Translations under genes and position numbers: made by a program
Part shown: piece by piece, positions 1 through 48,542 of the stretch
Numbering within the stretch: the stretch's first letter is position 1
Layout of the letters: each line of letters opens with the position of its first letter
Origin: a virus
Length of the DNA: 48,542 bases
Reading direction: 5' to 3' (one strand)
IMG/VR virus record: IMGVR_UViG_3300038545_000026
Span: 1-48,542 of that record
Notes under the pieces: generated by a model
Databases searched by the model: none
The model's input: only the letters and a program-made list of their open reading frames with translations
What the model was told of the DNA's origin: nothing

Positions 1-127
1 TATATACTCGTTAACCCTTATAATTATTTTTTTATCACTTTTGTTATTTTTTTATAACTTTTAACATTTCTTTAACACTTTTTAGTAATAAAATCATTAT
101 CTTTACTATGTAGTAAGGAAGTAAGTT
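1..127. repeat. Terminal direct repeat, copy 1 (identical to 48416..48542)
   Basis: Base-by-base comparison: 127/127 identical to the last 127 nt of the window. Confidence 0.95.
24..84. repeat. Three tandem ~20-bp T-tract repeats (TTATTTTTTTATMACTTTTR x2 plus a degenerate third)
   Basis: 24..43 and 44..63 differ at 3 positions. 64..84 keeps the CACTTTTT core. The same array recurs in the terminal copy. Confidence 0.7.
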
Positions 128-460
128 TATGAGGATTGAAAGCTACAAAGTAGAGTGTCCAAAACTTTAGTAGGGCATATGAAGCAGTAACCATTGAGCG
201 CATTCTGCCTGAGTAAACCTAAATAAGGAAGAAAAGAAACCAACCAGCACCAACTAGCTGTTAAAAAAGCGGATAATTTCGCAATATAAATAATTGGAGA
301 TAAAACTATGCTTTTAGTGTTAAAGTGCTTGAGAATGTTTGAAAAGCGAAAACACTGTTATAAATCGCTCCTTGCCACTCGCAGGCTTACCGTATTAACG
401 GCAAAGGGTTGCAACCTTTGGGAGCATCAAAAACAATATTAATTTTTAAAATTACTTATT

Positions 461-691
461 ATGAGAACTTTACAAATAGACTTTACAAGAATAAACAATG
501 ACATTAACGGTAATCCTAGATATGTATGTCACTTTTTAAATATTAGTGATGATTATTCAAGGGCTGTGAAATTAGCAAACAAAATAGGTGGTCGTAAATT
601 CCACAACAAACAGTATGGCGGTGGAATTGTATTTCAATCTTACAACCTTGGAAATTTACAAAATTTAATTAACGAAATTAAAGAAAACTAA
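461..691 (+). CDS. hypothetical protein (76 aa)
   Basis: First ORF of the rightward block, ATG start, no competing frame. Confidence 0.6.
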   Translation: MRTLQIDFTRINNDINGNPRYVCHFLNISDDYSRAVKLANKIGGRKFHNKQYGGGIVFQSYNLGNLQNLINEIKEN

Positions 692-720
692 ATATAATTA
701 ACCTACTTAAAACAAATCAC

Positions 721-864
721 ATGAAAACAATTACAAAATTAACAGGTACAACAAATTTATTTATTAACTCTATTACTATAGCTACTCTTGGTTTTATTGC
801 TTTTTGCTTGGTTATGGTAGTAACTAACATTGACCCGAATACAATAACTTTTGGAGGGTTTTAA
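721..864 (+). CDS. small membrane protein (47 aa)
   Basis: Hand-translated ORF MKTITKLTGTTNLFINSITIATLGFIAFCLVMVV... with one hydrophobic helix. It fills the gap between neighbours. Confidence 0.45.
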   Translation: MKTITKLTGTTNLFINSITIATLGFIAFCLVMVVTNIDPNTITFGGF

Positions 865-866
865 TT

Positions 867-1151
867 ATGAAAACTATAAATTTAAAAGAGTCTAATTTAG
901 TACAGATTAAAGCATTTTTTGAAACTAAATGTAGAAATAATGACATTCAAGGGTCTAAACTTGAGGCTTTATATAATTTAATTCAAAAAAAAGGAGAAGT
1001 TATGAAAATAAACAAGCCTCATAAATTCGAAGGCTTAAAAGCTTTAAATATAGGTGATGGATTTTTTATTTCATTAAAACACACGCCTATTAAAAAAGAT
1101 AGCTTCTTTCCTTGTAAATTAGACCAGTTGTACATGCAAGAGTTAAAATAA
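867..1151 (+). CDS. hypothetical protein (94 aa)
   Basis: ORF track, tightly packed with neighbours. Confidence 0.6.
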   Translation: MKTINLKESNLVQIKAFFETKCRNNDIQGSKLEALYNLIQKKGEVMKINKPHKFEGLKALNIGDGFFISLKHTPIKKDSFFPCKLDQLYMQELK

Positions 1152-1158
1152 AAATTCA

Positions 1159-1368
1159 ATGACAAAAGGCACAATGTTTATCAAGAAAGAAAAGAAAGGG
1201 TTTACGCATTTTGTAGACCCTTCAAATAATAAAACTTTTGCTTTCATTGGGCGGAACTCTGGAGGCTATTTCTTCGCCTTTGGAACTCCTACGCAAAAAG
1301 GCGGATATATCGCTTTCAATGTAAAGACAAAAGAAGAAGCAGAAAACAGAATTTTAAACAGTAACTAA
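1159..1368 (+). CDS. hypothetical protein (69 aa)
   Basis: ORF track, tight spacing. Confidence 0.6.
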   Translation: MTKGTMFIKKEKKGFTHFVDPSNNKTFAFIGRNSGGYFFAFGTPTQKGGYIAFNVKTKEEAENRILNSN

Positions 1369-1369
1369 C

Positions 1370-1564
1370 ATGAAATCAATAAAAATAAAAGCAACGCCAA
1401 ATTTTTCGAAAAGAACTTTTACTATCAGAAAATACTTCAAAAATGAACTTTTAGTAAAATACAGAACATCAAAAATGACTAAAGAAGAATTTGAATCAGA
1501 AGAAATGAACACCCAAAAAGATTGGGAGAATTTTTTAAGATATGGAGACTATTATAAGTGCTAA
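1370..1564 (+). CDS. hypothetical protein (64 aa)
   Basis: ORF track, starts 2 nt after the previous stop. Confidence 0.6.
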   Translation: MKSIKIKATPNFSKRTFTIRKYFKNELLVKYRTSKMTKEEFESEEMNTQKDWENFLRYGDYYKC

Positions 1565-1645
1565 AAAACATTAAATACTAATTAATAGCAAATATTTAGA
1601 TTTAATTATACCGCTTAGTGTTTTACATTGGGCGGTTTTAAAACA

Positions 1646-3688: not shown

Positions 3689-4711
3689 ATGAACTTCGAT
3701 AATTTCTTATTTAGAGCCTCACAAGCGCATTTTCTTACCGTTGGTAATATTGGATTAAACAATGAGCAAAAAGAGAGAAAGAAAGAGCTTGAATTAAGAA
3801 AAACCACATACTATTCTCTTACTGAAAAACAAGAAAAAACAGTTAAAGAATATACTGCTAAAGAAAACACTTTAACTGAGAAGCAAAAAAAAGAACTTAA
3901 TAGACTTAAGGAGAAAAAGAAAACACTTATCGGTTTAACACCTACCATGACTGAAGAGTTAAATGATTTAGCTTATATAGACGAAACACAGCCGTTGCCA
4001 AAAACGATGCAAACAGAATTACGAAAAATATACAGATCAACAAAGTATAATCGTAAATTCTTGTTTACTAACAAATATGTTCAGAAAGGAATTTCACAAG
4101 AAGAAGAAAGCTTTACCACATACCAACAATGGCTTAAAAAAGTTAAAGGAATTGATTTCCTACTTTTAAATAACAAGGTTAGAATTGAAAATGATTTCTT
4201 TACTGGCGAAACAGATTGCAATGAGCACTTCTACAACAAATTTGGTTGGGGATTTGACATAAAGACTTCTTGGTCAATAGAAACTTTTCCTTTTAAAGAA
4301 GACAAACTTGACGATAATTATTTTTGGCAAAACCAAGTTTATATGAATCTAACTGGAATCAAAAAATGGAAAACTGTTTACGTTCTGGTCAATGCTACTG
4401 AAGACGCGCTTCATAAAGAAAAAATGAAATACTTCTACGCTTACGAAATGCATCAAAGCGAAAGAAACGAAGAAAAATACAAAGAAGTTTGTCGTGATCT
4501 TGAAAAACTTCACATCGTTGATTATGATAGATTTGTTTTTCTTAATCCAGGACATGAACTAGAAATAACTCGTGATGAATGGCATGGTAACAATTGGGAC
4601 ATTCCGCTCATTGACCGAGTTCTCGAAAAAGAATTACAATACAGCGAATCAAAAATAAACTTCCTAAAAAACAGAGTGAAAATTGCTCGTGAGGAATTGA
4701 ATAGAATTTGA
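3689..4711 (+). CDS. PD-(D/E)XK (YqaJ/lambda-Exo-like) recombination exonuclease candidate with a coiled-coil N-terminus
   Basis: GETD...GFDIKTSW fits a D...(D/E)xK nuclease motif. Immediately downstream of the annealase. Confidence 0.55.
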   Translation: MNFDNFLFRASQAHFLTVGNIGLNNEQKERKKELELRKTTYYSLTEKQEKTVKEYTAKENTLTEKQKKELNRLKEKKKTLIGLTPTMTEELNDLAYIDETQPLPKTMQTELRKIYRSTKYNRKFLFTNKYVQKGISQEEESFTTYQQWLKKVKGIDFLLLNNKVRIENDFFTGETDCNEHFYNKFGWGFDIKTSWSIETFPFKEDKLDDNYFWQNQVYMNLTGIKKWKTVYVLVNATEDALHKEKMKYFYAYEMHQSERNEEKYKEVCRDLEKLHIVDYDRFVFLNPGHELEITRDEWHGNNWDIPLIDRVLEKELQYSESKINFLKNRVKIAREELNRI

Positions 4712-4732
4712 TTACGTCCCTCGGTGGGCTAT

Positions 4733-4800
4733 TCTACCTAACGGTATGTATATGCACCGTATGAGGTACGAATATGGGGTATATATGATGTTACCCAAAG
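4733..4800. repeat. Intergenic imperfect palindromic element (family member A)
   Basis: CTACCTAACGG arm, ACGGT/ACCGT and GGGTA/TACCC hairpins, TATATGATGTTACCC arm. Confidence 0.55.
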
Positions 4801-4831
4801 TACGGATTATTAATTACAAAACTTAAATAGA

Positions 4832-5257
4832 ATGACAAAATTAGAGAATTACTTAGAAGATGGTGCTAACTACCAAGCAAGAGCAACTTTAATGTTTTTA
4901 CAAAGAGATGCTGATATTGAAGAAAGTTGGAATGATGAATGGAAAAGATACGATGCAGAAATACAAGTTGCTCGTTGGGAAAATTGCAGAGAGCAAGGTT
5001 ATGTAGTAAGCCTTAGAAACAAAAAGCGTGAGCAGTTAAATATCGCATTTTTTGAACACAGAAACTCGGATAGTATTTGTGCTGTAAAATGGCAACAAGA
5101 AAGCATGAACACACTAACCATTGACAATGCAAAATTTGGCGATGTGTATAAAGACAAATACGATACTTCACATTCTGTTGGTTATGGGAAGGCTTATGAA
5201 ATGGCTGAATGGATTATTGAACAACTTAGAGAACATTGGATAAAAGCACAGTCGTAG
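4832..5257 (+). CDS. hypothetical protein (141 aa)
   Basis: ORF track. Confidence 0.65.
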   Translation: MTKLENYLEDGANYQARATLMFLQRDADIEESWNDEWKRYDAEIQVARWENCREQGYVVSLRNKKREQLNIAFFEHRNSDSICAVKWQQESMNTLTIDNAKFGDVYKDKYDTSHSVGYGKAYEMAEWIIEQLREHWIKAQS

Positions 5258-5259
5258 TA

Positions 5260-5444
5260 TTGTGGGTAACGGGCAGCGTGTAAGGTTCGTGGATGCGCAG
5301 CATACACATTAGAACCGTTTGAGCTGCGCATCTATAAGCTTTAAACATTGTTAGCTATCTGTAGCCCAGCGATTAGAAATGAACAAAATAAATATTAACA
5401 GACGATTGCCGATGCGTAGCCATACGTTGACCGTTAGCCTACAA
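5260..5444. repeat. Composite intergenic palindromic element (family members B/C)
   Basis: TTGTGGGTAACGG (5260..5272) is inverted at CCGTTAGCCTACAA (5431..5444). Perfect 10-bp stem GATGCGCAGC/GCTGCGCATC (5292..5301 / 5323..5332). CATTGTTAGCTATCTG arm at 5346..5361. Confidence 0.65.
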
Positions 5445-5471
5445 TAAGCAATCTTTTAAACTATTAAAATT

Positions 5472-5597
5472 ATGAAATTTGATGATTGTGAACACAACTA
5501 TGGAACATACACTTGTTTTGAATCAGGTTATGAAAGGTGTAAAGCTTGTGGTGTTGTAATGAACGCTAGTAAAGAAGAATTTTATTCTGATGAATAA
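5472..5597 (+). CDS. small 4-Cys protein (41 aa), zinc-ribbon-like
   Basis: Hand-translated MKFDDCEHNYGTYTCFESGYERCKACGVVMNASKEEFYSDE. Confidence 0.4.
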   Translation: MKFDDCEHNYGTYTCFESGYERCKACGVVMNASKEEFYSDE

Positions 5598-5649
5598 TGC
5601 AAAAATGCAGTAATAATTTTACTGGTTTGATTGCGTGCCTCGATGGATA

Positions 5650-5711
5650 TTGTAGGCTAACTGTTTGTATAACCATCCGTTTTAATGGTGGTTATACGTT
5701 GTTAACTACTG
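5650..5711. repeat. Intergenic palindromic element (family member D)
   Basis: TTGTAGGCTAACTG arm, stem GTATAACCATC/GGTGGTTATAC (5667..5677 / 5687..5697), ATACGTTGTTAACTACTG arm. Confidence 0.65.
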
Positions 5712-5793
5712 TTATTTTTGTGCGGTGGCAAATTAATTTTGATAAAAATTAAAATATTTCTTTAAAATAGTTGTGTATATCATATATATAATA

Positions 5794-5801
5794 TATATTT
5801 G
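5794..5801 (+). promoter_or_regulatory. Bacteroidota-type -7 box TATATTTG (TAnnTTTG)
   Basis: Exact consensus, TTG about 23 nt upstream, 40 nt before the ATG at 5841. Confidence 0.45.
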
Positions 5802-5840
5802 TACTGTTGCAATGAAGCAATAACCTTAAACCTTTTAATT

Positions 5841-6065
5841 ATGAATACTTTAAACAACATAGTAGAAATGAACTTAACTCAAAGAGAAATAAACATTATA
5901 GCTTTTGAAGCCGAAGGTGTTAATCCTTACGATGCTAATATGATGGATGAGTTTTCTGTAAACACTTTTCATAGAATAATGAAAGCGTCTACCACTATAT
6001 TAAGCCCTTCTTATGTGGTTAGAAGATGTTATTTTCTTGTTAACGGTAAAAAATTATCAAACTAA
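5841..6065 (+). CDS. hypothetical protein (74 aa; start moved to the internal ATG downstream of the promoter box)
   Basis: The track ORF 5799..6065 would begin inside the -7 box. The MNTLNN start lies 40 nt downstream of it. Confidence 0.55.
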   Translation: MNTLNNIVEMNLTQREINIIAFEAEGVNPYDANMMDEFSVNTFHRIMKASTTILSPSYVVRRCYFLVNGKKLSN

Positions 6066-6235
6066 TGAACGATACACAAATAGAAACTTTAAACTGGTAT
6101 AAAAAAAACAGTTCAAAGTTTAAGAACATAGAATTTAAAATAACCTTAAAAGATGGTACTTTGAAGATAGTTACTAAAACCCATATTTATATAATGGGTA
6201 AAAGAGGCGGATTAATAAACATAGAAATACGATAA
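6065..6235 (+). CDS. hypothetical protein (56 aa)
   Basis: Hand-translated, TAATG overlap with the upstream gene. Confidence 0.5.
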   Translation: MNDTQIETLNWYKKNSSKFKNIEFKITLKDGTLKIVTKTHIYIMGKRGGLINIEIR

Positions 6236-6237
6236 TT

Positions 6238-6411
6238 ATGGACTTTTTAAATATGAATTTACCACCAGAGGATGAAAACAGTAACAAGTTTCCAAAATTA
6301 GATACTTGGTTTTATTTTATGAATGAGCAAATGGAAGAACTTGAAAAAGTACAACAAAAAGGTAGGATAAACTCATTGCTTTTTGATAATGATATAGATT
6401 TAATAGAATGA
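6238..6411 (+). CDS. hypothetical protein (57 aa)
   Basis: Hand-translated, ATGA overlap with the next ORF. Confidence 0.5.
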   Translation: MDFLNMNLPPEDENSNKFPKLDTWFYFMNEQMEELEKVQQKGRINSLLFDNDIDLIE

Positions 6412-6554
6412 GAAAACTAATAGACATAAAAGAAAAAGACATTGAACCATTAAAGATAATGGCAGTTAAGTCAAATAAAGACCTTAAAAACTACATTCAA
6501 GACGTTTTGAGTGAGCACGTTCTGCTTGGTGGCAAAAAAAATAATTGTAGTTAA
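6408..6554 (+). CDS. small protein (48 aa), possibly ribbon-helix-helix-like
   Basis: Hand-translated MRKLIDIKEKDIEPLKIMAVKSNKDLKNYIQDVLSEHVLLGG... The strand-helix-helix pattern is only suggestive. Confidence 0.4.
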   Translation: MRKLIDIKEKDIEPLKIMAVKSNKDLKNYIQDVLSEHVLLGGKKNNCS

Positions 6555-6635
6555 CGTTGAGCGTATGAAACGTAGCGTTTAGAAAGCACAAACTTTGAAT
6601 TAAACATTAACATTAATAATTAAATATTTTTTTAA

Positions 6636-6863
6636 ATGAAAACACAAGAAAGAGTTATATTAAATAGTGGAATTGTAGAAGAGAAAGGTTTTGAATGTGG
6701 CAATACGAATTGGTATTATAATGGTGAATTAAACCTTATTTTATGGTGTTGGGATACTTGGACTTTAGAAAGACCGCCTAAAAGCGCAGATGAAAGAGCG
6801 AAAGTAATAAAAGATAAAATTAGATATGTTGATGAGTTGGAAGATGTTTTAAAAAATATTTAA
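6636..6863 (+). CDS. hypothetical protein (75 aa)
   Basis: ORF track. Confidence 0.6.
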   Translation: MKTQERVILNSGIVEEKGFECGNTNWYYNGELNLILWCWDTWTLERPPKSADERAKVIKDKIRYVDELEDVLKNI

Positions 6864-7110
6864 TTATGGGTAAGTACACACGAAATAGATGGTTAAGCTC
6901 TTATGTAGCTATGTTTTATACGCATTGTTGTAAACCGCAGGGAACTGTTAATTTAAAACATTAAGAATGAAAGAACCAAAGCAGATAAGCGATAGAATAA
7001 AAGACCTTAAAAAAATTAAAAAAGAGTTTGACGAAGAGCCAATAACTAATAGACAGGAAATTAAAATACTTAATGACCGGATAAAGACTCTTGAATGGGT
7101 TTTAAATTAA

Positions 7111-7213
7111 TTGTTTACAACGGACGAGTGTATAGCAAGTAAGCCACGCGCTAAACTTTGAATTGAAATAATAACTTAATTGGCTTATTTGCTATACATA
7201 TTGTTAGCAACTG
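7111..7213. repeat. Intergenic long imperfect hairpin (family member G)
   Basis: TTGTTTACAACGG arm. A 19-nt stem GTGTATAGCAAGTAAGCCA (7128..7146) pairs with TGGCTTATTTGCTATACAT (7181..7199). TATACATATTGTTAGCAACTG arm. Confidence 0.7.
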
Positions 7214-7236
7214 GGCGGTTTTAAAACGAGAATATT

Positions 7237-7530
7237 ATGATGTACGCAAGTAAAATAGAAATAAAGTACGAACCACAAAAGGTTAGATACCAACGTGAAG
7301 TAGAGCTACCCGATAGGCTACTAACACTTGAAGATATAGGTAAACACCTAAAAGAAGGTGAGAAGTTTGGTTTCTTCCAAAGAGAAGAAGGAAGGCTTGG
7401 ACTACCTGTTGACTACATAAGCATACATGGGTACAGAGATGAAACCAAAGAAGAAGTAGATATAAGGGTAGCGAAAGCGGAGGAGTACAATGAAAACTAT
7501 GAAAAGTTTCATGCGAAGTACAGAAAGTAG
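7237..7530 (+). CDS. hypothetical protein (97 aa)
   Basis: ORF track. Confidence 0.65.
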   Translation: MMYASKIEIKYEPQKVRYQREVELPDRLLTLEDIGKHLKEGEKFGFFQREEGRLGLPVDYISIHGYRDETKEEVDIRVAKAEEYNENYEKFHAKYRK

Positions 7531-7532
7531 CC

Positions 7533-7674
7533 TTGTTGCTAACGGAAAAGTATATGAAAAGTAGGGGATTAAAAGTAAGTGACGTTTATTGTGGCGATAA
7601 TTTTGCAGACGTGCAGATAGCTCCGATTCTCAATAAATTACCCCCTATTTTTTATATACATTGTTACCTATCTG
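7533..7674. repeat. Intergenic palindromic element (family member H)
   Basis: TTGTTGCTAACGG (7533..7545) and ATATACATTGTTACCTATCTG (7654..7674), followed by TTAAAAACCGCC. Confidence 0.6.
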
Positions 7675-7728
7675 TAATTTTTAAAAACCGCCTGCGTGAG
7701 GTACGAGGGCAAATAAAACACAAAGAGA

Positions 7729-8439
7729 ATGAAATATATGGGAAGTAAAAATAGGTTTGCAAAGTATTTGTTACCTATAATTTTAAAAGACAGAAAGCCA
7801 AATCAATGGTATGTAGAGCCCTTTGTTGGTGGATGTAATATGATTGATAAAGTACAGGGTCATAGAATTGGTGCTGATGCAAATAAATATCTTATTGCTA
7901 TGTGGAAAGGATTGCAAGAGGATTTAAAAAGACCTTTGGAAATACCAAGAGAATTACACGCAGAAGCAAGGACTGAATATAATAACAGACAAAGCAATAA
8001 ATTTACAGATTTTGAAATTGGTTGGATTGGCTTTATGGCTTCTTTTAATGGTAGATTTTTTGGTGGTGGATATTCTGGAAAGCATAAAAATAGAGATTAT
8101 GTAAACGAGCAAATAAGAAACACAACTAAACAAATACCATTAATAAAAACAGTTGATTTTTACGATTGCGAATACCAAGATTTAGATATACCAAGTGAAA
8201 GTATAATTTATTGTGATATACCATATCAAGGAACAAAAGTATATGATAGTAAATTAGTTTTTGATTACCCTAACTTTTGGCAATGGTGTAGAGATATGAC
8301 AAAACAAGGACATAAAGTATTTATTTCAGAATACAATGCTCCAGAAGATTTTAAATGCTTATGGGAAAAAGAAACTAAAGTATCTATAAGACCTACAAAA
8401 ACATTAATTCAAACCGAAAAGTTATTCACGTATGAGTGA
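7729..8439 (+). CDS. dam: N6-adenine DNA methyltransferase, Dam/D12 class
   Basis: YMGSKNRF...EPFVGG (motif I) and CDIPYQG (DPPY-type motif IV), about 236 aa like T4/E. coli Dam. Confidence 0.85.
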   Translation: MKYMGSKNRFAKYLLPIILKDRKPNQWYVEPFVGGCNMIDKVQGHRIGADANKYLIAMWKGLQEDLKRPLEIPRELHAEARTEYNNRQSNKFTDFEIGWIGFMASFNGRFFGGGYSGKHKNRDYVNEQIRNTTKQIPLIKTVDFYDCEYQDLDIPSESIIYCDIPYQGTKVYDSKLVFDYPNFWQWCRDMTKQGHKVFISEYNAPEDFKCLWEKETKVSIRPTKTLIQTEKLFTYE

Positions 8440-8459
8440 GTGGCGGTTTTTAAAAATTA

Positions 8460-8597
8460 TTGTAGGTAACGGTTTGTATATGATTTTGTAGGCATAGACA
8501 AACGGATAATTTACGATTAACACCTACTTAAAAGACAAGAATTAAACATTGAAATATTAACCAACCGCCTATAAATTATATACTTTGTTATATGTAG
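8460..8597. repeat. Intergenic palindromic element (family member I)
   Basis: TTGTAGGTAACGG arm, CGGTTTGTATATG/CATAGACAAACGG stem, TATACTTTGTTATATGTAG arm. Confidence 0.6.
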
Positions 8598-8621
8598 TGC
8601 GGTTTTAAAAGACAAAATCTT

Positions 8622-8981
8622 ATGGGATGGGATTGCGATGATAAATTAGACCAAATGGGTGAAGATGCTAAAAGACATTTAAAAGACCATATAGAAATGT
8701 TATACATACAGGCAGTAAGCAAACTTTCTCCTAAAACAAAAAATGACACATCTAAAAAATTAGATAGTAAATTGATAGAAAACTTCCTTAAAAAACGAGG
8801 TTATACTATGAATTATGTTTTAGGAAAAACGGTTATGGTAAAAGCATTTACTTGTGTATATGTGCAAGATGATTATGTAGAAGTATGGCACGATAAAACA
8901 AACAATGATAAATCCGTTTTTGTTAATGAAAGTTTACTTACGGGATTGCCTATTACACTTAATTATATGGAACGAATTTAG
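8622..8981 (+). CDS. hypothetical protein (119 aa)
   Basis: ORF track. Confidence 0.6.
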   Translation: MGWDCDDKLDQMGEDAKRHLKDHIEMLYIQAVSKLSPKTKNDTSKKLDSKLIENFLKKRGYTMNYVLGKTVMVKAFTCVYVQDDYVEVWHDKTNNDKSVFVNESLLTGLPITLNYMERI

Positions 8982-9087
8982 CATTATATATAACGTTAAA
9001 GTATAAGACGTGTTGCTGAATTAAGAACAAACCATTATTAATATGCCATAAAAAAACAAAAAAGGTGTGGCAATAAAAACTAAAAAT

Positions 9088-9507
9088 ATGATTGTAAAGA
9101 CAAAATTTAGAGCCTTTTGTGAGGTGGAAACAGACAAAGGAACTGTAAATGAACTTATGTACTTTGATCCAATGGAGTGTGATAACGGACTTTGGTTTTC
9201 TGCTCCAGATAATGTTTGGCATATAAACGAGTATTTTATACTAATGCAATGGACTGGATTAAAAGACAAAAATGGAATTGATATTTACGAAGGTGATGTA
9301 GTAAAAGTGAATAAAGACGAGATAGGAAGTATTGACTTTAATAGGGGTAATTTTTGGGTAGGATTTTATCAAGAACCTTCACAACAAAACTTATCTGACT
9401 TTGTTAAATACAATTCTAAAACAGATGCTTACGACATTGTAGAAGTTGAAATAGTTGGCAAAATAGATTTTGAAAATGTAACAAGACATTTAACCGTAAG
9501 TAGCTAA
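9088..9507 (+). CDS. YopX-family protein
   Basis: LMQWTGLKDKNGIDIYEGDVVKV matches the YopX core. The track start at 9067 is GTG, so the first ATG (9088) is preferred. Confidence 0.75.
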   Translation: MIVKTKFRAFCEVETDKGTVNELMYFDPMECDNGLWFSAPDNVWHINEYFILMQWTGLKDKNGIDIYEGDVVKVNKDEIGSIDFNRGNFWVGFYQEPSQQNLSDFVKYNSKTDAYDIVEVEIVGKIDFENVTRHLTVSS

Positions 9508-9533
9508 AAAAGCGCAAAGGCTTTTGTTTTTTT
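9506..9533 (+). terminator. weak intrinsic terminator
   Basis: AAAAGC-GCAAAG-GCTTTT hairpin followed by a T-rich run. Confidence 0.4.
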
Positions 9534-9587
9534 ACATTGGGTTAAGAACTGACCTTAATAATTAAGCACAAGCCTTGCAATACGTTT

Positions 9588-9660
9588 TATACGGTGTTAC
9601 CAACTGGCGCACCTTATAGAGTATTGATAAACGCAACCTTTGTGCGCTTGTTGGTAACGG
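9588..9660. repeat. Intergenic palindromic element (family member K)
   Basis: GGTGTTACCAACTGGCGCAC (9593..9612) is inverted at GTGCGCTTGTTGGTAACGG (9642..9660). Confidence 0.7.
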
Positions 9661-9713
9661 ATGGTGGTATGAGTAGTAAATAAAACGGATTAATAAACTA
9701 AAAATTAAATATT

Positions 9714-9926
9714 ATGACAACTGAAGAAAACAAAACAGAAATTACAAAATTAAGCACTTGGGATATGGCAGACACTGTTGTAAAATGGGAAGGATATGAC
9801 CAGACAACAATACCTGAACCAACTGCAAGAAATATGAAATTGTATATGGATAAAATAAATGAACTTACAGAAGCTGTAAATAAATTAACTGCACTTAATA
9901 AGGGCTTAATTGATGCACTAAAGTAG
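9714..9926 (+). CDS. hypothetical protein (70 aa)
   Basis: ORF track. Confidence 0.6.
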   Translation: MTTEENKTEITKLSTWDMADTVVKWEGYDQTTIPEPTARNMKLYMDKINELTEAVNKLTALNKGLIDALK

Positions 9927-9976
9927 TTTTATTTATTACTTATACCACGTGTTGTAAAATCGTTTTAATGTTTTAC

Positions 9977-10013
9977 AACTATCATATATCAACAATACTA
10001 GAAAAATCAACAC
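9977..10013 (+). repeat. 37-bp direct repeat, copy 1 (27-bp perfect core 9987..10013)
   Basis: AACTATCATATATCAACAATACTAGAAAAATCAACAC matches 17087..17123 at 35/37 positions. Ends 7 nt before the integrase ATG. Confidence 0.9.
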
Positions 10014-10020
10014 ATAAGAT

Positions 10021-10815
10021 ATGAGTTTATACAAAATTACAGAACAAAAATTGTATTATTTAGGATATTCAGAAAACACTATTAAAACTTATTTGAATTA
10101 CATTTTTGAGTTTGACCAATGGTCGAAAAAACATCACTCAAGGTTAAATTCAAAAGACATTCAAGTGTATTTAGATGATTACAAATTCAGTTCTAGGTCA
10201 CAACAAAACCAAGTTATAAGCTCATTAAAGTTTGCATGGGAAAAAGTTCTTGGTAAGAAGTATTTAAAAATTGATTTTAAAAGACCTAAAAAACAAAAGA
10301 AATTACCCAAAATAATTGACGCAGAATTACTAGCTGAAAAAATCAAAAGTATTAGTAATTTAAAACACAGAGCAATATTAACTATAGGTCTTAGCTGTGG
10401 ATTAAGAGTTTCAGAAGTTATAAATCTTAAATGGGAACATTTAGACCGTAAAAGAAATATCTTAAACGTTGTAAATGGAAAAGGTAGTAAAGATAGATGT
10501 TGTGTGTTGAATGATGATTTAATATTGTTATTAGAGGATTATTGGAGAGAGTTTAAATCTAAGGAATATATTTTCAATGGTCAAAAGTCGTTAAAATATT
10601 CTCAAAGCAGTATTCAAAGTATAGTTAAGAATTACATACATAGAAACGCTTCATTTCACTTTTTGCGTCATTCGTATAGCACGTTTGCTATTGATAATGG
10701 AACAGAATTAAAGCCTTTAGCGTATAGTTTAGGTCATAATTCTACAAAAACAGTTGAACAGTTTTATTTTCATCAATCAACAAAAACTTTAAAAACTATA
10801 AAGCAAGCTATCTAA
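10021..10815 (+). CDS. int: tyrosine recombinase/integrase (XerC/D-like, 264 aa)
   Basis: N-terminal SAM-like core-binding domain. Catalytic signature GLRVSEV ... HFLRHSYST ... LGHNSTKTVEQFY (R, HxxR, H, Y). Confidence 0.85.
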   Translation: MSLYKITEQKLYYLGYSENTIKTYLNYIFEFDQWSKKHHSRLNSKDIQVYLDDYKFSSRSQQNQVISSLKFAWEKVLGKKYLKIDFKRPKKQKKLPKIIDAELLAEKIKSISNLKHRAILTIGLSCGLRVSEVINLKWEHLDRKRNILNVVNGKGSKDRCCVLNDDLILLLEDYWREFKSKEYIFNGQKSLKYSQSSIQSIVKNYIHRNASFHFLRHSYSTFAIDNGTELKPLAYSLGHNSTKTVEQFYFHQSTKTLKTIKQAI

Positions 10816-11474: not shown

Positions 11475-11490
11475 TAAAAAAATATTAATC

Positions 11491-14330: not shown

Positions 14331-14334
14331 AACA

Positions 14335-15027: not shown

Positions 15028-15029
15028 TC

Positions 15030-43199: not shown

Positions 43200-44729
43200 C
43201 TACAAAACTCCACGTTGTCTAGAACCCATAAACTTACGCTTTACGTCTTTTAAGTCAAACCATACACGCATAAACATCATGTCACGCCAATCTGGGCTTC
43301 GTCCTATATCTTGTTTTATTTCAGCTTTACTCTTGCAATCTAGCTTTCTTTCAGGGTCTTGGTCGCCTTTGGATTGTATTTGAGCAAGTTCAGCTTTGAT
43401 TTCTTCTTTTTGGTCATTGGTCAAGTCTGCCTCAATAAAAAGCCCTGCTTGATTAATCTTGTCAGCCAATAAGTACAAGCATTGCACTTGTAGGTTTTTG
43501 TAGTTAGGAGTATCTTTACCTTGTTTTACTGGTCTAGCATTGTTTCTGAAGCCTTTTATTCCTGTACCATCTTGAACACCTCCACCAACTCCATCAGCAT
43601 CAACAATACATCTAGTTTTTGGTATTTTATACTTAAATCTAAGCGTTCTAATGGCAAGCTCTATATCTGTGGTCTTTGATATATCTAGTGTTATTACTTC
43701 TTTTAATCTCCATCCACTCCAATAACCAATGACCGCTTTATCACTACCAAAACGAGCAACGTCCGCAGTAATATAACCTTTACCATCAGGAACTTGGTCA
43801 TTGTCATAGATAATATCTATCATTTCCTGTTCTGCTAATTGATAAGGGTTGTCGTCATAATCCCAATTACCTTTAAATAGACGTTCATAGGTCGGTTTGT
43901 GGTCAACTGCCTTAGCCATTAATCCATCTATATAATCTTGGTCAATGAATGGATTCTCAGTAACCATACAATCTAAATATATTCTTTGAGGTCTTTTTCT
44001 TCCGTTTGGCAATGGTATTTTATTTTCTTCATACAATGAGCCGTTCTTATGTTTATCATAAAACTTAGTCTTTGCCCAGTTCTTCTTTGGGTTGCAAGTC
44101 ATGAATAGCTTTTTCTTTAGATTGTATTTAGAATTTAAGTGCCTACCAATCCTTGTAGCTAACACGATAACAGCCATTTCATGCACTTCACCGATTTCTT
44201 CAACCCAACCTGAAGTATATTCAGTAGAACCTAAATCTTCATACATCGGATCGCTAGGCTTATATGAAACTTCTATTAAGTTGATTACACTTTGGTTTTT
44301 AAATTCTATATAATTCTTAACAGCATTGAATTTGTACATATCATTGGTTATTCCGTATTCATTGCATACTTTTTTAAATGTTTTGAAAACAGAATCTAAT
44401 AAGTCTTTTAATTGATTACGAGCAATGAACCAATTAGTATTAGGGTAAGCCAAACAGCTAAACACCTCCCAACAAACACCAGTCCACGACTTTGCACCTC
44501 CAGCAGCTCCACCATACAAAAACTCGTCGTGGTCATTGTCTGTAAGTATTTTTAAAGCTAATTCTTGTTTTTCATGCTTAGCCATTGAACCAATATCCCA
44601 ATCTCCTTCACAATTATTAGCCATACCCTCAACAATAAAGCTAAAATCTCCTTGCTTGAACATTTCTACATAAACATCTATTAGCTTTACGTTTGAGGTT
44701 AATTGCTCTATTTGTTTTTCGTCTATCAT
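43200..44729 (-). CDS. terL: terminase large subunit
   Basis: Walker A GGAAGGAKSW, ATPase-plus-nuclease two-domain size (509 aa). Confidence 0.85.
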   Translation of the reverse strand: MIDEKQIEQLTSNVKLIDVYVEMFKQGDFSFIVEGMANNCEGDWDIGSMAKHEKQELALKILTDNDHDEFLYGGAAGGAKSWTGVCWEVFSCLAYPNTNWFIARNQLKDLLDSVFKTFKKVCNEYGITNDMYKFNAVKNYIEFKNQSVINLIEVSYKPSDPMYEDLGSTEYTSGWVEEIGEVHEMAVIVLATRIGRHLNSKYNLKKKLFMTCNPKKNWAKTKFYDKHKNGSLYEENKIPLPNGRKRPQRIYLDCMVTENPFIDQDYIDGLMAKAVDHKPTYERLFKGNWDYDDNPYQLAEQEMIDIIYDNDQVPDGKGYITADVARFGSDKAVIGYWSGWRLKEVITLDISKTTDIELAIRTLRFKYKIPKTRCIVDADGVGGGVQDGTGIKGFRNNARPVKQGKDTPNYKNLQVQCLYLLADKINQAGLFIEADLTNDQKEEIKAELAQIQSKGDQDPERKLDCKSKAEIKQDIGRSPDWRDMMFMRVWFDLKDVKRKFMGSRQRGVL

Positions 44730-44738
44730 TGAGCGAGA

Positions 44739-44957
44739 TTATTCTATTGCAGTTAATTCTCCATTTTTCCCAATACCATACGCAGCTACAAAGACACGAA
44801 CCCAACTAGGAGGATTTTTCATTCCTGGTTTAGTGGCATTCTTGTATGCGCCTTGCGTTATACCAAGTATTTCGACTACTTTATCTTGGTCAATGTTTTC
44901 TTCTTTTAGTATTTCTTTATACTTTTTAAGATTTTTTTCCATATTTTCTAAATTCAT
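44739..44957 (-). CDS. small HTH protein (72 aa)
   Basis: VVEILGITQGAYKNATK helix-turn-helix-like segment. Confidence 0.5.
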   Translation of the reverse strand: MNLENMEKNLKKYKEILKEENIDQDKVVEILGITQGAYKNATKPGMKNPPSWVRVFVAAYGIGKNGELTAIE

Positions 44958-45147
44958 TTATAAATCCAAGTAGCAGTTCTTCGGTCATTGGCGACTTTCC
45001 AATACCTAGTTCCTCGCACACATTCTCAAACTCCAATACAACACATCTTCTTACGCTTGCATTGAACGGAATCTTCTTCTGCAATGGTAAAACTTTTGGA
45101 TTGTTTGGAAATGGTCGCTTGTATTTCTTTCTACGCTTCTTGGTCAT
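44926..45147 (-). CDS. hypothetical basic protein (73 aa)
   Basis: ORF track. Confidence 0.5.
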   Translation of the reverse strand: MTKKRRKKYKRPFPNNPKVLPLQKKIPFNASVRRCVVLEFENVCEELGIGKSPMTEELLLGFINEFRKYGKKS

Positions 45148-45529
45148 TGATCAGTTTTAGTTCTTTGTTTGTTAATGCGAAGTATAGGTTTTGGAGTTGA
45201 TGCACGTACTTTATATTTGCATCAAAAAAACACCATTGACCATCATTATTAATCATTGAATCAAAGCGATTATCGATAACTATAGCTGTATATGTATCAT
45301 TTGATATTTTTAATCTATATTCAGCTATAGATTTAGTAAACCCAAAATCCAAAAGCCACTTCTCGGTCAATGGTATTGGCTCTACATTCTCCAAAAACAA
45401 AGTACCTTCACCTAAGGCGTACCAATCATTTTCATTCCATTGAAATGCATCTGTATTATCATCTCTGTAGCTCCATTCATTGTTGTGCTTTACATAATTC
45501 CCTATACGTAGTTCTTGTGGTTGTATCAT
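45131..45529 (-). CDS. hypothetical protein (132 aa)
   Basis: ORF track. Confidence 0.6.
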   Translation of the reverse strand: MIQPQELRIGNYVKHNNEWSYRDDNTDAFQWNENDWYALGEGTLFLENVEPIPLTEKWLLDFGFTKSIAEYRLKISNDTYTAIVIDNRFDSMINNDGQWCFFDANIKYVHQLQNLYFALTNKELKLINDQEA

Positions 45530-45531
45530 AG

Positions 45532-45798
45532 TTATTCGTTTAATTCATTCTGTATCTTATTCAATACATTTTGTCTTTTGTTTTTGAAATAGTCTTTTAA
45601 GAATCCTATCAATGCTCCTTGTAGTTCTTCGTTAGAACTAGCAGATATTTTAGATTGACCTTCGTTAGCAAAAGCTCTAATCTCCATAAAGCAAAAATCT
45701 TTCATTTTTTTTACAGAATCTAGATCCGATTCAATCAAACTTAGTTCATGTGCGTGCCTTTGTATGGCTTTTGATTTAGTTTCGCTCATTGGCTTCAT
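45532..45798 (-). CDS. hypothetical protein (88 aa)
   Basis: ORF track. Confidence 0.6.
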   Translation of the reverse strand: MKPMSETKSKAIQRHAHELSLIESDLDSVKKMKDFCFMEIRAFANEGQSKISASSNEELQGALIGFLKDYFKNKRQNVLNKIQNELNE

Positions 45799-45877
45799 TT
45801 TTTACCTCACAATAACATTGACCGCAGTCCATCCAACAGTCACATATTCTTGATTGGTTTGTTTGTTTGTCGCTCAT
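45776..45877 (-). CDS. Cys-rich micro-protein (33 aa)
   Basis: Hand-translated MSDKQTNQSRICDCWMDCGQCYCEVKNEANERN. Confidence 0.4.
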   Translation of the reverse strand: MSDKQTNQSRICDCWMDCGQCYCEVKNEANERN

Positions 45878-45879
45878 TG

Positions 45880-45975
45880 TTATTCTATAAAATCTTCATT
45901 ACCCAACATCTTAGATATATACTCAAAAGTATAAGCTATTATTGTTAAGGTGTACATTATTAGTTTATCTGTCAT
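45880..45975 (-). CDS. micro-protein (31 aa), hydrophobic
   Basis: Hand-translated MTDKLIMYTLTIIAYTFEYISKMLGNEDFIE, 2 nt from its neighbour. Confidence 0.4.
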   Translation of the reverse strand: MTDKLIMYTLTIIAYTFEYISKMLGNEDFIE

Positions 45976-45978
45976 TGG

Positions 45979-46101
45979 TCAGATATTTACATTACATTTA
46001 TTACAAAGAAAATATTTATCCTCTATATAATCCAATTCATCTTCAGTTAAACCCTTAAAATACAAGTCTATTTTATCTTTTAATTCTTTTGTTAATTCCA
46101 T
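45979..46101 (-). CDS. micro-protein (40 aa)
   Basis: Hand-translated MELTKELKDKIDLYFKGLTEDELDYIEDKYFLCNKCNVNI. Confidence 0.4.
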   Translation of the reverse strand: MELTKELKDKIDLYFKGLTEDELDYIEDKYFLCNKCNVNI

Positions 46102-46103
46102 TG

Positions 46104-46199
46104 TTATCTAGTATTAAATAATTCATTTGCTTTTATAATATCTTGTTTAGAATCTATTAACCACTTCTCAAATCCTTCTATACACTTACCTGTTAACAT
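46104..46199 (-). CDS. micro-protein (31 aa)
   Basis: Hand-translated MLTGKCIEGFEKWLIDSKQDIIKANELFNTR. Confidence 0.4.
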   Translation of the reverse strand: MLTGKCIEGFEKWLIDSKQDIIKANELFNTR

Positions 46200-46203
46200 A
46201 ATT

Positions 46204-46311
46204 TTAGTTTTTATTATTCTTAAACACTAGCTTTATTAAAATCCAAGAAAATATATACATTAAGATTCTGAATGATAAAAAACCAATTATAGTATATAGT
46301 ACTACTTCCAT
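46204..46311 (-). CDS. membrane micro-protein (35 aa)
   Basis: Hand-translated MEVVLYTIIGFLSFRILMYIFSWILIKLVFKNNKN. Confidence 0.4.
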   Translation of the reverse strand: MEVVLYTIIGFLSFRILMYIFSWILIKLVFKNNKN

Positions 46312-46729
46312 TTTTTTATATTTTAAAAAGTTCTTTGTTCTGTCAGGAGGTATCGCAAGTAACGAGAATAAATCTCTTCAAGTGTATCTTGCCACTCATC
46401 CTGTAAGGTAGGATAACACCAGTGATACCTATTCAACAAACACAACCATCTGACACTGGCTTACTAATGCTACCCTTATCTCGGGATGTTGTTACATATT
46501 CTGTTCATTAAATAGCAAAGAACTTTATTTTTTTTAACAACAAAGGCTTTCTTCATCTGACGTGTTTCTACGTACCTTTTGCAGACCTGTCTCTTCTATA
46601 ACGAGCTTTCATTGCTACTAGCTTAGTGTATTCGTTTTTTACGGCTAATTACATTGAAACGAAAAAACAATTTTGTAACTCCTCCTTTTCCATTTACACT
46701 AAAGCCATTACTAACCCTCTCTGTGGTTG

Positions 46730-46803
46730 TGGTCAATATTGGATTCGAACCAATGACCTTCGCATTATGAGTGCGCTGCTCTAACCAACTGAGCTAAAAG
46801 ACC
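46730..46803 (-). tRNA. tRNA with anticodon CAU (Met, or Ile2 if lysidine-modified)
   Basis: Minus-strand cloverleaf: GGTCTTT-TA-GCTC-AGTTGGTTA-GAGC-A-GCGCA-CTCATAA-TGCGA-AGGTC-ATTGG-TTCGAAT-CCAAT-ATTGACC-A. Two U-U mismatches in the acceptor stem (5:68, 6:67). No encoded CCA. Confidence 0.75.
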
Positions 46804-47010
46804 ATTCAAAAAAACCAAGAGCGAGAAACCTATTAATCACTATTCATATCCCTATTATGAAAATCCCGCCCTTGGAAAAAATTTTAACACCGCTAAGATA
46901 GTAATAATATTATTAATAACCAAACATTCCAAAAATACAACCCAAAAATTATTTCCAATGACCCAAATCTATATACACGCCTCTGGCGGCCGCGCCGAAA
47001 ATTTCAGAAA

Positions 47011-47235
47011 TCAACGAACCAAAACATACTCTACAATACATTCCTTGAATATAAAACGCAACTTCCCTCCGTTCATAGATTTTACTTTTCTGCTCTTGAA
47101 GTTGCAAAACTGAGCGTAATCCCACATCATAAAATCACACATGTCATTAGCTTTCTTAAAATAATAATCGTCGCCTGTACGTAAAGCGTCAAAAACCTTA
47201 ATTATCTCCATAATTTCGCTTATTTTACCCCCCAA
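47011..47235 (-). CDS. hypothetical protein (74 aa)
   Basis: ORF track. Confidence 0.5.
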   Translation of the reverse strand: MGGKISEIMEIIKVFDALRTGDDYYFKKANDMCDFMMWDYAQFCNFKSRKVKSMNGGKLRFIFKECIVEYVLVR

Positions 47236-47475
47236 ATATAACGAAAAACATTATCTAAAGCCCGAGAAACCTTCATATTTTTTATGAACCCAAAATCACT
47301 AAAAACACCACTTTTATCACCACAAACCGCTCGACAACGCATTATCGTAACCATCATTACCTTACTTTTTGGAATTTAGGAAAAATTATTGTTTGGGGGT
47401 GAATGCGCTTCGCAGCGTTCCGCTAGGTGGGTGGTACCCCCCCTATCGATTCAGTTGTTTAGTTGTTTAAATGTA

Positions 47476-48108
47476 TCATCCCCTCCCTTTATTCTTCTGT
47501 AACAACACTAGTTGCAAGGCTTTGAGGTACTCTTTCTTTTCCTGGTCATTCATTCCTACCATGTTGTTTTGTATGTTGTATGTGTCGCCTTTCTGTGCAT
47601 TGTCAAGGGCGTAGTTGCCTAACATCTTGTTTAGTATTTCGACGGTCTTTGCTTTATCAATGATCCGGATTTCCATGACCTCTTCAGTAACCAGCTCCCC
47701 TTTTCTATCCGTGTACTCCTTCTTACGATACTTTACGCTCTGAATACAGCGCTTTACCTCGCTCGGCAATGCTTTTACTTCATCTACACTAAGACCGATG
47801 TAATCAGTCGCATCACTGTAACACCATTGTATTAGTTCTCGCACTATCTGTTCTGGCTCAATGGCTGCAATGGCTCTAAGGTTCTGCCTTTTCTCTTGTA
47901 TATACGCAGCATTGGCCGCTTCCTTCTTAATCGTATTAAATAGCACCCTAGCAGTTCCGTAACCTATTTCTGGTCTATGTTCTTGCACCGCTTTAGCACC
48001 GTTGAAACCATTTAGAAACCACTCGTCAATTATCGCCCTATGTTCGTCCTTTACAATATCCATGGGCTTTACGCTAATATCATGCTTCGTTCCTTTTTTA
48101 TCACTCAT
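47476..48108 (-). CDS. terS: terminase small subunit (Terminase_2-like)
   Basis: EHRAIIDEWFLNGFNGAKAVQEHRPEIGYGTARVLFNTI resembles the N-terminal HTH region of P27-type small terminases. First gene of the late block. Confidence 0.7.
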   Translation of the reverse strand: MSDKKGTKHDISVKPMDIVKDEHRAIIDEWFLNGFNGAKAVQEHRPEIGYGTARVLFNTIKKEAANAAYIQEKRQNLRAIAAIEPEQIVRELIQWCYSDATDYIGLSVDEVKALPSEVKRCIQSVKYRKKEYTDRKGELVTEEVMEIRIIDKAKTVEILNKMLGNYALDNAQKGDTYNIQNNMVGMNDQEKKEYLKALQLVLLQKNKGRG

Positions 48109-48415
48109 ATTTCTAGGATGGTTTGTTTATTTGTGTGTTTTTGTGTCTTTCTCATTCTTTTATTGAATTTTAACATAATTTATTCTTATGCTTTATGTTG
48201 TTTGTTTTCTTTGTATTGTTGTTTATATGGTTTCTTATTTCGTGTCTTGATTTCATTCTTACTGCTTTATTATTTCCTCAAAGGTAATACTTTTTTGTTA
48301 TGTTCTTTCTTATGGTGTTTTTCTTTGTTTTAAGAAGTTTTCTTTTATCATTGACCGAGAAGCATCAAAACAAGACTTTCAGTGCCTTAGACATCTTTAA
48401 AATTACTATTAATCT

Positions 48416-48542
48416 TATATACTCGTTAACCCTTATAATTATTTTTTTATCACTTTTGTTATTTTTTTATAACTTTTAACATTTCTTTAACACTTTTTAG
48501 TAATAAAATCATTATCTTTACTATGTAGTAAGGAAGTAAGTT
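48416..48542. repeat. Terminal direct repeat, copy 2 (identical to 1..127)
   Basis: 127/127 identity. The window ends exactly where the repeat ends. Confidence 0.95.

Follow-up and report, generated by a model that had tools for sequence, protein, structure and literature searches.

Chi, DNA uptake sequences and KOPS are rare cases in which a DNA sequence itself is the functional unit, and to our knowledge all well-understood genome-wide selected oligonucleotide signals belong to bacterial chromosomes. Here, a feature of comparable kind is described in a phage. The stretch analyzed, hereafter the window, is the whole of IMG/VR record IMGVR_UViG_3300038545_000026 (48,542 nt, G+C 32.1%), a complete metagenomic siphovirus genome related to the lytic Polaribacter siphoviruses P12002L and P12002S (genus Incheonvirus). 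The feature is a family of octamers, CAWTG followed by ACC, AGC or GTC (W, A or T), present at 104 sites.

The closest described systems differ in how far the resemblance goes. In lambdoid phages, Chi is over-represented where the phage carries a recombinase but no RecBCD inhibitor and absent where one is encoded; it clusters around the replication genes and the packaging site, and its density is ~0.2 per kb in Escherichia coli and in recombinase-less lambdoid phages (Bobay, Touchon & Rocha 2013, PMC3784561). Earlier work cited there found Chi to be rarer in recently acquired genes (PMC3784561). The word of the window is likewise a short, asymmetric and slightly degenerate octamer (an 8-bp core plus a purine) located within genes. 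Some phages have it in excess where their close relatives do not, and it is frequent near replication and packaging genes and rarer in recently acquired ones. It differs in strength, the median excess of Chi in lambdoid phages being 2.5-3.1x as compared with 25x here, although the null models differ, and in the absence of a matching excess from the sampled host-lineage chromosomes.

DNA uptake sequences, such as the USS of Haemophilus and the DUS of Neisseria, offer another close parallel: they too occur about once per kb in both orientations, lie within genes in several frames, tolerate some cost to the protein and turn over in position. They are, however, a property of bacterial genomes driven by biased uptake, whereas the present excess belongs to a phage lineage, and the sampled Flavobacteriaceae segments and Bacteroidota loci show no excess, as against the ~1 copy per kb that uptake sequences reach throughout a host genome. 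The stoperators of Cluster A mycobacteriophages, which are dispersed repressor sites, are similar in being dozens of copies of an asymmetric word spread over a phage genome, there read by one phage protein. Stoperators are 13-14 bp long, number ~25-35 and are mostly intergenic and oriented with transcription; the window, in contrast, has 8-9-bp words at ~100 sites, ~87% of them within open reading frames (ORFs), with 50 of the 104 in sense and 40 in antisense orientation and 14 not wholly within an ORF. HIP1 of cyanobacteria (GCGATCGC) is also an octamer over-represented tens-of-fold, independent of frame and with lineage-specific variants, but it is a perfect palindrome and a genome-wide host property linked to a methyltransferase, whereas the word described here is asymmetric, specific to a phage lineage and does not travel with a cognate methyltransferase.

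The FtsK KOPS, SpoIIIE SRS and TraB TRS share with it the form of an 8-bp asymmetric word of double-stranded DNA with one or two degenerate positions, but they are strongly polar along the replicon, and here the two strands carry 53 and 51 sites. Programmed nick sites of the T5/tf type have their consensus on a single strand, unlike this even split. The form of the word would also fit a restriction-modification target, although phages usually avoid such targets and this one is enriched. Overall, this is a genuine and strongly non-random feature that is under selection as DNA and is confined to a phage lineage; its nearest likeness is to Chi and to signals of the uptake-sequence type, without so far a full match to any known family. 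Literature searches on the words returned only primers and nuclear-receptor elements, and nothing specific was found on Chi or over-represented motifs in Bacteroidetes or flavobacterial phages.

Selection on the word at the DNA level

The octamer CAWTGACC occurs 52 times in the window, 28 times on the + and 24 times on the - strand. A preliminary description of the same DNA had listed 51 of these, every one at its exact coordinate, and had overlooked GGTCAATG at 42648. Its account in terms of a single octamer was nevertheless too narrow for what is a degenerate 9-bp family: three triplets stand out after CAWTG, namely ACC (52 sites), AGC (34) and GTC (18), each against 1.7 expected. The sister CAWTGAGC, the commoner of the two, had escaped notice, while CAWTGGTC had been recognised correctly but counted at about 12, with several positions misplaced by 1-3 nt; there are 18 copies, 12 on the + and 6 on the - strand. 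The family as a whole reaches ~2 sites per kb, or one per ~470 bp.

An excess of this size could in principle come from base composition or codon usage, or else reflect a peptide that recurs or a longer, dispersed repeat. Markov models of order 0-2 predict 1.7 CAWTGACC sites, and those of orders 3, 4 and 5 predict 4.6, 11.9 and 22; order 6 predicts 40, much of the observed count, and would favor such an origin. The order-6 result is circular, however, because the 7-mers of that model are themselves made by the motif, so that the signal is absorbed and the model is no independent null. Shuffling synonymous codons within each gene, which preserves each protein and per-gene codon usage, leaves 10.8±2.0 CAWTGACC sites (maximum 16 in 300 shuffles) instead of the ~50 that the preliminary description had named as the sign of a coding artefact, and a codon permutation null leaves 5.2±1.1. 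For the 34 CAWTGAGC sites, Markov models of order 0-2 give 1.7-2.3 and synonymous shuffles 5.5±1.4, and for the 18 CAWTGGTC sites such shuffles give 6.8. Overall, the excess is ~25-30-fold over composition and ~5-fold over protein- and codon-preserving shuffles. The sequence itself recurs in seven other assemblies, five matching at 100% and two at 99.96-99.98% identity, which also speaks against a by-product; identical copies come from ENA, Logan and JGI assemblies, and no useful polymorphism was found among the seven.

One-mismatch scans show positions 1, 2, 4, 5, 6 and 8 of the octamer to be nearly fixed, position 3 to be A or T equally and position 7 to be C or G. The ninth base is A or G at 89 of the 104 family sites and, in agreement with the preference reported before, at 44 of the 52 copies of CAWTGACC. 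Beyond this purine, the flanks are uninformative, which means that the word is not part of a longer repeat. The unit is an asymmetric ~9-bp word, CAWTG(ASC, less often GTC)R, where S is C or G and R a purine. Its palindromic part is the CAWTG core alone, to which the 3 bp are added on one side; only 5 of ~99 motif-bearing CAWTG cores are extended on both (10114, 11432, 16489, 25118 and 43412), which indicates that the unit read is the asymmetric half and not the palindrome.

The reading frame matters little. Copies of CAWTGACC fall in sense frames 1 and 2 (7 and 19 sites), in antisense frames 0, 1 and 2 (4, 5 and 12 sites) and outside ORFs (5 sites), which confirms the frame independence claimed earlier; sense frame 0 is unused because CAWTGACC would read TGA there. 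At ~6 of the 104 sites the ATG inside CAATG serves as a start codon, a point in favor of a coding by-product, but a start-codon explanation covers merely these sites and was rejected. Given the use of both strands and all frames, the unconserved flanks and the codon-preserving nulls in the window and its relatives, a compositional or coding by-product is refuted, and the probability left to it is negligible. The site at 46751 does fall inside a tRNA gene, as had been noted: the variable-loop/T-stem sequence GGTCATTGG of tRNA-Met (46729-46803, - strand) holds this copy, which appears to be a coincidence of tRNA architecture and not a selected site.

Comparison with relatives adds an evolutionary dimension. 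Site positions are mostly unshared among the window, P12002L and a group of relatives designated L132-L135. Within TerL, some of the changes that created sites of the window were synonymous and others non-synonymous; where the window has CAATGACC, the relatives have CAATGAGC at the corresponding position of TerL, by way of an Asp/Glu change, so that the ACC and AGC variants appear interchangeable. L132 and L134 also bear sites in portal and capsid genes that are non-homologous to those of the window, which suggests that the selecting agent acts genome-wide in trans. Between L132 and L135 (~85% DNA identity), 12 of 15 motif octamers are identical, compared with 45.6% of all octamers (p = 0.007). 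L132 and L134, 97% identical over 11.4 kb, differ at 10 of 27 sites, with both gains and losses seen when L135 is taken as the outgroup. The differences are mostly C/T or G/A, at G/C positions, which is what is expected of AT-biased mutation acting on a GC-rich word held by selection. The motif DNA itself is under selection. The preliminary description had argued for DNA, not protein, as the level of selection, and the codon-preserving nulls, the use of all frames and both strands, the independent gains (including non-synonymous ones) and the excess conservation all bear it out.

Lineage specificity, host DNA and methyltransferases

Counts across genomes were made for CAWTGASC, as observed against composition-expected numbers. 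The excess is patchy among close relatives: it is strong in the window (86 against 3.4, 25x), in L132, L133, L134 and L135 (TerL 81-83% identical to that of the window; 18-25 against 1.2-1.5, 12-17x) and in L027 (TerL 67%; 13 against 1.1, 12x), intermediate in P12002L/S (16-17 against 2.7, 6x) and near baseline in L136-138, partial contigs whose TerL is 80% identical to that of the window and 85% to that of the L132 group (3-4 against 1.0, ~3x). The three-variant count set against codon-preserving shuffles gives the same gradation, with 25 against 7.6±1.8 in P12002L, 29 against 7.0±1.8 in L134, 22 against 6.5±1.4 in L135, 15 against 2.1±1.3 in L027 and 4 against 1.0±0.9 in L136. Among ~95 further loci from Bacteroidota phages and prophages, host flanks included in some, the median is 1.7x and none exceeds ~5x, and Croceibacter phage P2559Y has 3 sites against 3.4 expected, hence no excess. 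The excess is a graded trait of one phage clade. An alternative motif was sought in the motif-poor L136-138, but the words AGCACCA and CAGCACCA turned out to be strand-biased Gly-Ala coding words and no DNA signal.

The host-lineage DNA sampled is not enriched in the word. Dinucleotide shuffles predict 1.3 sites in a 20.7-kb chromosome segment of Polaribacter marinivivus, 2.1 in a TARA flavobacterial scaffold and 2.4 in a Winogradskyella-type contig, which hold 0, 3 and 3, respectively, and two Tenacibaculum loci (43 kb) have 4 against 2.75; this sample amounts to ~100 kb of the host lineage, and a ~2x Chi-like host excess lies below its resolution. These numbers bear on the idea, also raised in the preliminary description, that the phage copies a hyper-abundant host signature of the uptake-sequence or HIP1 type, whether through mutational or repair bias or through amelioration. 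The ~1 site per kb per variant, the strand symmetry and the intragenic position are indeed those of uptake sequences, and recently imported DNA is without the word. Yet no excess is seen in the 62 kb of Polaribacter, TARA flavobacterium and Winogradskyella, in the Tenacibaculum loci, in the ~95 Bacteroidota loci or in P2559Y; co-occurring phages that share a gene cassette with the window lack the word, and the sister group, with TerL 80-85% identical, has almost none. Long residence in a host chromosome is unlikely as well, because a search of 185,579 species genomes gave no prophage relative whose TerL exceeds 63% identity. Mimicry of the host is thus left without support and, for the taxa sampled, is largely refuted; it is very unlikely that the word is hyper-abundant in the host or stems from a mutational bias general to it.

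The window encodes two methyltransferases, as the preliminary description had it: a D12-class N6-adenine enzyme and a C5-cytosine-like protein, both with family matches. The word could be the target of a modifying or nicking enzyme, be it the C5-like methyltransferase, a nickase or a host enzyme, and could have accumulated because the altered sites benefit the phage. Its form is that of a restriction-modification site, asymmetric over 8 bp, degenerate as W and S, and always with cytosine at positions 1 and 8; the MmeI-family enzyme MaqI recognises CRTTGAC. The C5-like protein, whose start overlaps the end of an upstream 245-aa ORF (15030-15767), has a catalytic core with visible motifs I, IV and VI (FAGIGG, SPTCQ, ENV) and no room for a target-recognition domain, and the predominance of C/T and G/A among the L132/L134 site differences could be read in the same direction. 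However, phages with 41-50% homologues of the C5-like enzyme show no excess of any octamer, and tblastn finds no homologue of it in P12002L/S, which still reach 6x. A Vsr-type repair endonuclease was not found among the window ORFs scanned, the one-mismatch T variants are undepleted, and restriction-type targets are usually avoided rather than accumulated. Programmed nicks are confined to one strand in phage T5 and to the top strand in phage tf, as opposed to 53 to 51 here.

The D12 gene leads to the same conclusion. It sits on a mobile ~800-bp cassette (window 7652-8482) inside a motif-free stretch, and the DNA of this cassette recurs at 92-93% identity in the phage types L116-120 and L129-131 and at 81% in the type L121-128. 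The three types are otherwise unrelated to the window and together have 3 sites against 4.1 expected; one of them came from the same sample as a motif-poor relative. The 90%-identity cluster of the D12 protein has 37 members, on unrelated phage contigs. As neither methyltransferase co-varies with the excess, the methyltransferase link suggested in the preliminary description was rejected, and a role of the word as a modification or nicking target is improbable. Two words, CACGGCAGGA and GCACACGC, recur 4-8 times per locus in three of the cassette-bearing loci (L121, L124 and L128) and probably belong to a local repeat array.

Distribution along the genome and candidate readers

The sites are unevenly distributed along the window (Table 1). 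The stretch 4617-10113 has none against 11.8 expected at mean density (Poisson p ~8e-6), and the major capsid gene and its neighbours are also free of sites. The 2 kb from 43412, in contrast to a mean of 4.3, hold 13 sites (Poisson p = 5e-4), and in L132, L134, L135 and L027 many sites also lie between terS and the end of TerL. A further 11 sites fall within 10-12 kb, and the NinG/Rap gene has 6. None of the 21 sites in 10-16 kb is of the AGC variant, for which the chance at its genome-wide share of one-third is 0.67^21 = 2e-4. Orientation shows no regional polarity in the window. Near terS and TerL, the L132-135 lineage has sites in a ratio of 10 to 3, but this orientation bias is not robust, as the window shows 11 to 9 and L027 4 to 4. 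Of 46 BLAST segment ends at mosaic junctions, 8 come within 15 bp of a site as compared with 6% at random, a figure in which junctions are recounted across pairs and confounded with gene starts.

Our tentative best guess is that the motif is a Chi-like signal: a tag under positive selection that marks the DNA of the phage itself, would be read in trans by a protein and would attenuate nuclease action; a binding array for a phage protein is nearly as likely. An end-processing helicase-nuclease would recognise the word and switch from degradation to recombination, much as RecBCD/AddAB does at Chi, where its nuclease is attenuated and RecA is loaded, and the candidate reader is either a host enzyme of the AddAB/RecBCD type or the phage exonuclease acting with the Rad52 protein. 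The circular assembly and the terminase family, which we take to be associated with headful packaging, suggest that DNA ends may occur anywhere, in which case tags would be needed throughout the genome and in both orientations. A need of this kind agrees with the ~2 sites per kb and with their even division between the strands, as well as with the higher density around the terminase and replication genes.

Other properties of the genome agree with a Chi-like signal. The Rad52-family protein and the exonuclease, pointed out earlier and matching Pfam Rad52_Rad22 and PHROG 5715, form a recombination module of the phage itself. Among ~50 window ORFs scanned, none matched the Gam or Abc2 families, although the inhibitors used by Bacteroidota phages may differ; a recombination module with no recognisable inhibitor is compatible with the recombinase-without-inhibitor pattern of Chi. 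The clusters at 10-17 kb and 43.4-45.4 kb, together with the site-free imported cassette and its surroundings, parallel the distribution of Chi. Moreover, the word is enriched in relatives that, in the sampled stretches, share no detectable early-region genes with the window, and the recurrence of one word among phages with different non-structural genes favors a common external reader.

Several observations weigh against a Chi-like function. A true host Chi should be over-represented in the core genome of the host and co-oriented with replication, but the 62 kb from three Flavobacteriaceae chromosomes have 6 sites against 4.7 (a small sample, in segments short for strand skew), and the Tenacibaculum loci are similarly near expectation. 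The three cassette-sharing phage types, which probably draw on the same host pool, are equally unenriched. The ~2 sites per kb are roughly tenfold the Chi density of ~0.2 per kb, and a 9-bp word exceeds every Chi known to us (5-8 nt). Orientation is unbiased even near the presumed packaging site, with 11 forward and 9 reverse sites from terS to the TerL end. A softer argument is that W/S degeneracy, which Chi does not share, is typical of double-stranded reading, whereas Chi is read single-stranded.

The last argument is more at ease with an array for a phage-encoded, sequence-specific protein that would bind double-stranded DNA as a monomer and might serve DNA organisation, protective coating, multi-site packaging or silencing. 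Candidate readers are the DnaA-domain-IV protein, the 72-aa helix-turn-helix protein, the KilA-N protein, the O-like protein and TerS. The excess goes with the phage lineage and not with the sampled host-lineage chromosomes or co-occurring phages; W/S degeneracy and an asymmetric 9-bp footprint suit a monomeric reader of double-stranded DNA, and the uneven use of variants among modules, with no AGC in 10-16 kb, is expected if reader specificities differ. As a monomer, DnaA domain IV recognises 9-bp boxes that are asymmetric. The recognition helix of the window protein is GRNHATVIHG, and that of E. coli DnaA is presumably GRDHTTVLHA, which would place the substitutions of the phage copy at the base-contacting residues D433 and T435. 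This protein is an attractive candidate and may be the one that reads the motif. Canonical DnaA boxes (TTWTNCACA) are unenriched in the window (8 against 9.2 expected).

The comparative evidence is less favorable to such an array. Sequences of the form TTWTNCACA are scarce in P12002L (0 against 8.9), P12002S (1 against 8.8) and L134 (0 against 4.3), which may reflect avoidance of DnaA or initiator binding and hints that an initiator's box is avoided, not accumulated; the DnaA-domain-IV protein of P12002L has the near-canonical helix DHSTIIH, where the window has NHATVIH. No gene was found that is common to the motif-rich genomes and missing from the motif-poor ones. TerS, a 73-aa ORF and the helix-turn-helix family are also present in L136-138, and the recognisable early genes of the window are without homologues in the sampled parts of L132-135. 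An association of the 72-aa helix-turn-helix ORF with the excess was considered and vanished at the sensitivity of hidden Markov models, the family being found in motif-poor relatives too. We know of no phage protein that acts at ~100 sites inside genes irrespective of their orientation. IMG/VR contains no close relatives of either the DnaA_C protein or the exonuclease. It is possible, though less likely than not, that the word serves a phage-owned self-recognition, in which the clade would encode a reader of double-stranded CAWTGASCR and load its genomes with ~2 tags per kb. Such a reader would tell phage DNA from that of the host or of competitors, for the purposes of nuclease protection, packaging or recombination.

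Genome context and significance

The ends of the window repeat each other over 127 nt (1-127 and 48416-48542), which indicates a circular assembly. Inside this overlap, in the intergenic region between the divergent terS and early genes, a 20-bp unit, ATTATTTTTTTATCACTTTT, is repeated three times in tandem at 23-82. The coordinates of genes, clusters and motif sites are collected in Table 1.

Table 1. Motif sites, site clusters and genes of the 48,542-nt window
Feature	Position	Strand	Remarks
CAWTGACC sites, starts	828, 2054, 2381, 4609, 10996, 11435, 11822, 12411, 14197, 14717, 15088, 16492, 17246, 20956, 22845, 22893, 24182, 27990, 30964, 33796, 34309, 38863, 43727, 45234, 45816, 46751, 46956, 48349	+	
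CAWTGACC sites, starts	1924, 2979, 4387, 11196, 11432, 14596, 14753, 15208, 15640, 21324, 26585, 32248, 35120, 36880, 41458, 42648, 43412, 43796, 43940, 44531, 44888, 44983, 45142, 45365	-	
CAWTGAGC sites, starts	192, 2765, 3016, 3760, 4219, 18974, 27790, 32557, 33196, 38455, 38516, 44034, 44727	+	
CAWTGAGC sites, starts	1844, 2069, 4606, 16598, 17474, 17918, 22842, 23642, 24957, 29411, 29642, 30059, 31259, 31406, 36490, 37327, 38815, 41952, 45784, 45872, 47856	-	
CAWTGGTC sites, starts	10117, 10575, 10880, 11192, 14953, 17625, 24530, 25121, 34718, 37304, 43415, 45973	+	
CAWTGGTC sites, starts	2389, 10114, 11826, 14237, 16489, 25118	-	
Two-sided site GGTCAATGACC	11432..11442		quasi-palindrome
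Motif-free stretch	4617..10113		contains ~17 small ORFs and the mobile cassette with the D12 methyltransferase; sites 4609 and 10114 flank this largest gap
Dense cluster	10114..11833		tyrosine-recombinase and NinG genes; ACC and GTC variants only
Dense cluster	14197..15647		around the O-like replication gene; 9 sites in 1.5 kb
Densest cluster	43412..45372		5' half of TerL and small genes upstream of TerL
Rad52-family annealing protein	3018-3686	+	Pfam Rad52_Rad22, E = 7.9e-9
Exonuclease	3689-4711	+	PHROG 5715, E = 1.5e-25
D12-class N6-adenine methyltransferase	7729..8439	+	Pfam MethyltransfD12, E = 2.3e-15
XerD/integron-integrase-like tyrosine recombinase	10021-10815		264 aa; early operon
NinG/Rap junction endonuclease	10815..11474	+	Pfam NinG, E = 1.5e-12
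DnaA domain IV helix-turn-helix protein	12014..12556	+	Pfam Bac_DnaA_C, E = 1.6e-9
KilA-N protein	13081-13707		
O-like replication gene	14496-14831		PHROG 'replication initiation O-like', E = 5e-5
C5-cytosine methyltransferase-like protein	15757..16395	+	212 aa; PHROG 363, E = 7e-13
Packaging block	43200..48108	-	TerL and TerS, with tRNA-Met 46729-46803 in between
TerL	43200-44729	-	PF04466 Terminase_3; 76% identical to TerL of P12002L
72-aa protein, weak helix-turn-helix	44739..44957	-	directly upstream of TerL; Pfam HTH_19, E = 0.0077, below family cut-off
TerS	47476-48108	-	sub-threshold Terminase_2 match, E = 3e-5, 25.1 bits against a cut-off of 26.1

Several neighbouring elements deserve mention in their own right. 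The XerD-like tyrosine recombinase of the early operon has no homologue in P12002L/S and may act in multimer resolution rather than in phage integration. Within the tail-gene block, two ORFs on the opposite, + strand (193 and 91 aa; 35278-36183) have no family match and look like a moron, and the motif site at 35120 lies in the intergenic region upstream of this pair. An Rfam scan of the window returned tRNA only. A GC-rich island at 47390-47445 (- strand), containing GGTACCACCCACC, is situated downstream of terS and folds no better than shuffled sequence. Just downstream of terS in L134, at 6041-6192, seven copies of TTGTACCCACAA are arrayed on one strand with 20-33 bp spacing and could be a pac site or an origin. 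Among TerL homologues (P0038-40, P0053, P0073, P0096, P0099 and P0106), several proteins are ~850 aa long and carry LAGLIDADG/Hint-type Pfam domains (PF14528 and PF05204); these look like intein-bearing terminases of this clade.

What sets the present case apart is that ~100 sites, paid for in part by amino-acid changes, are maintained in one phage lineage and are unseen in the sampled DNA of the host lineage. The cultured Polaribacter phages P12002L and P12002S have a weaker form of the excess (25 sites against 7.6±1.8 in shuffles of P12002L), which brings the question within reach of the bench. If the word is Chi-like, it would be the first candidate Chi word for Flavobacteriia, and the phage would be pushing Chi density about ten-fold past known cases. 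If it is instead read by a phage protein, it would represent a new kind of self tag of phage genomes, a phage counterpart of Chi and of the uptake sequences.

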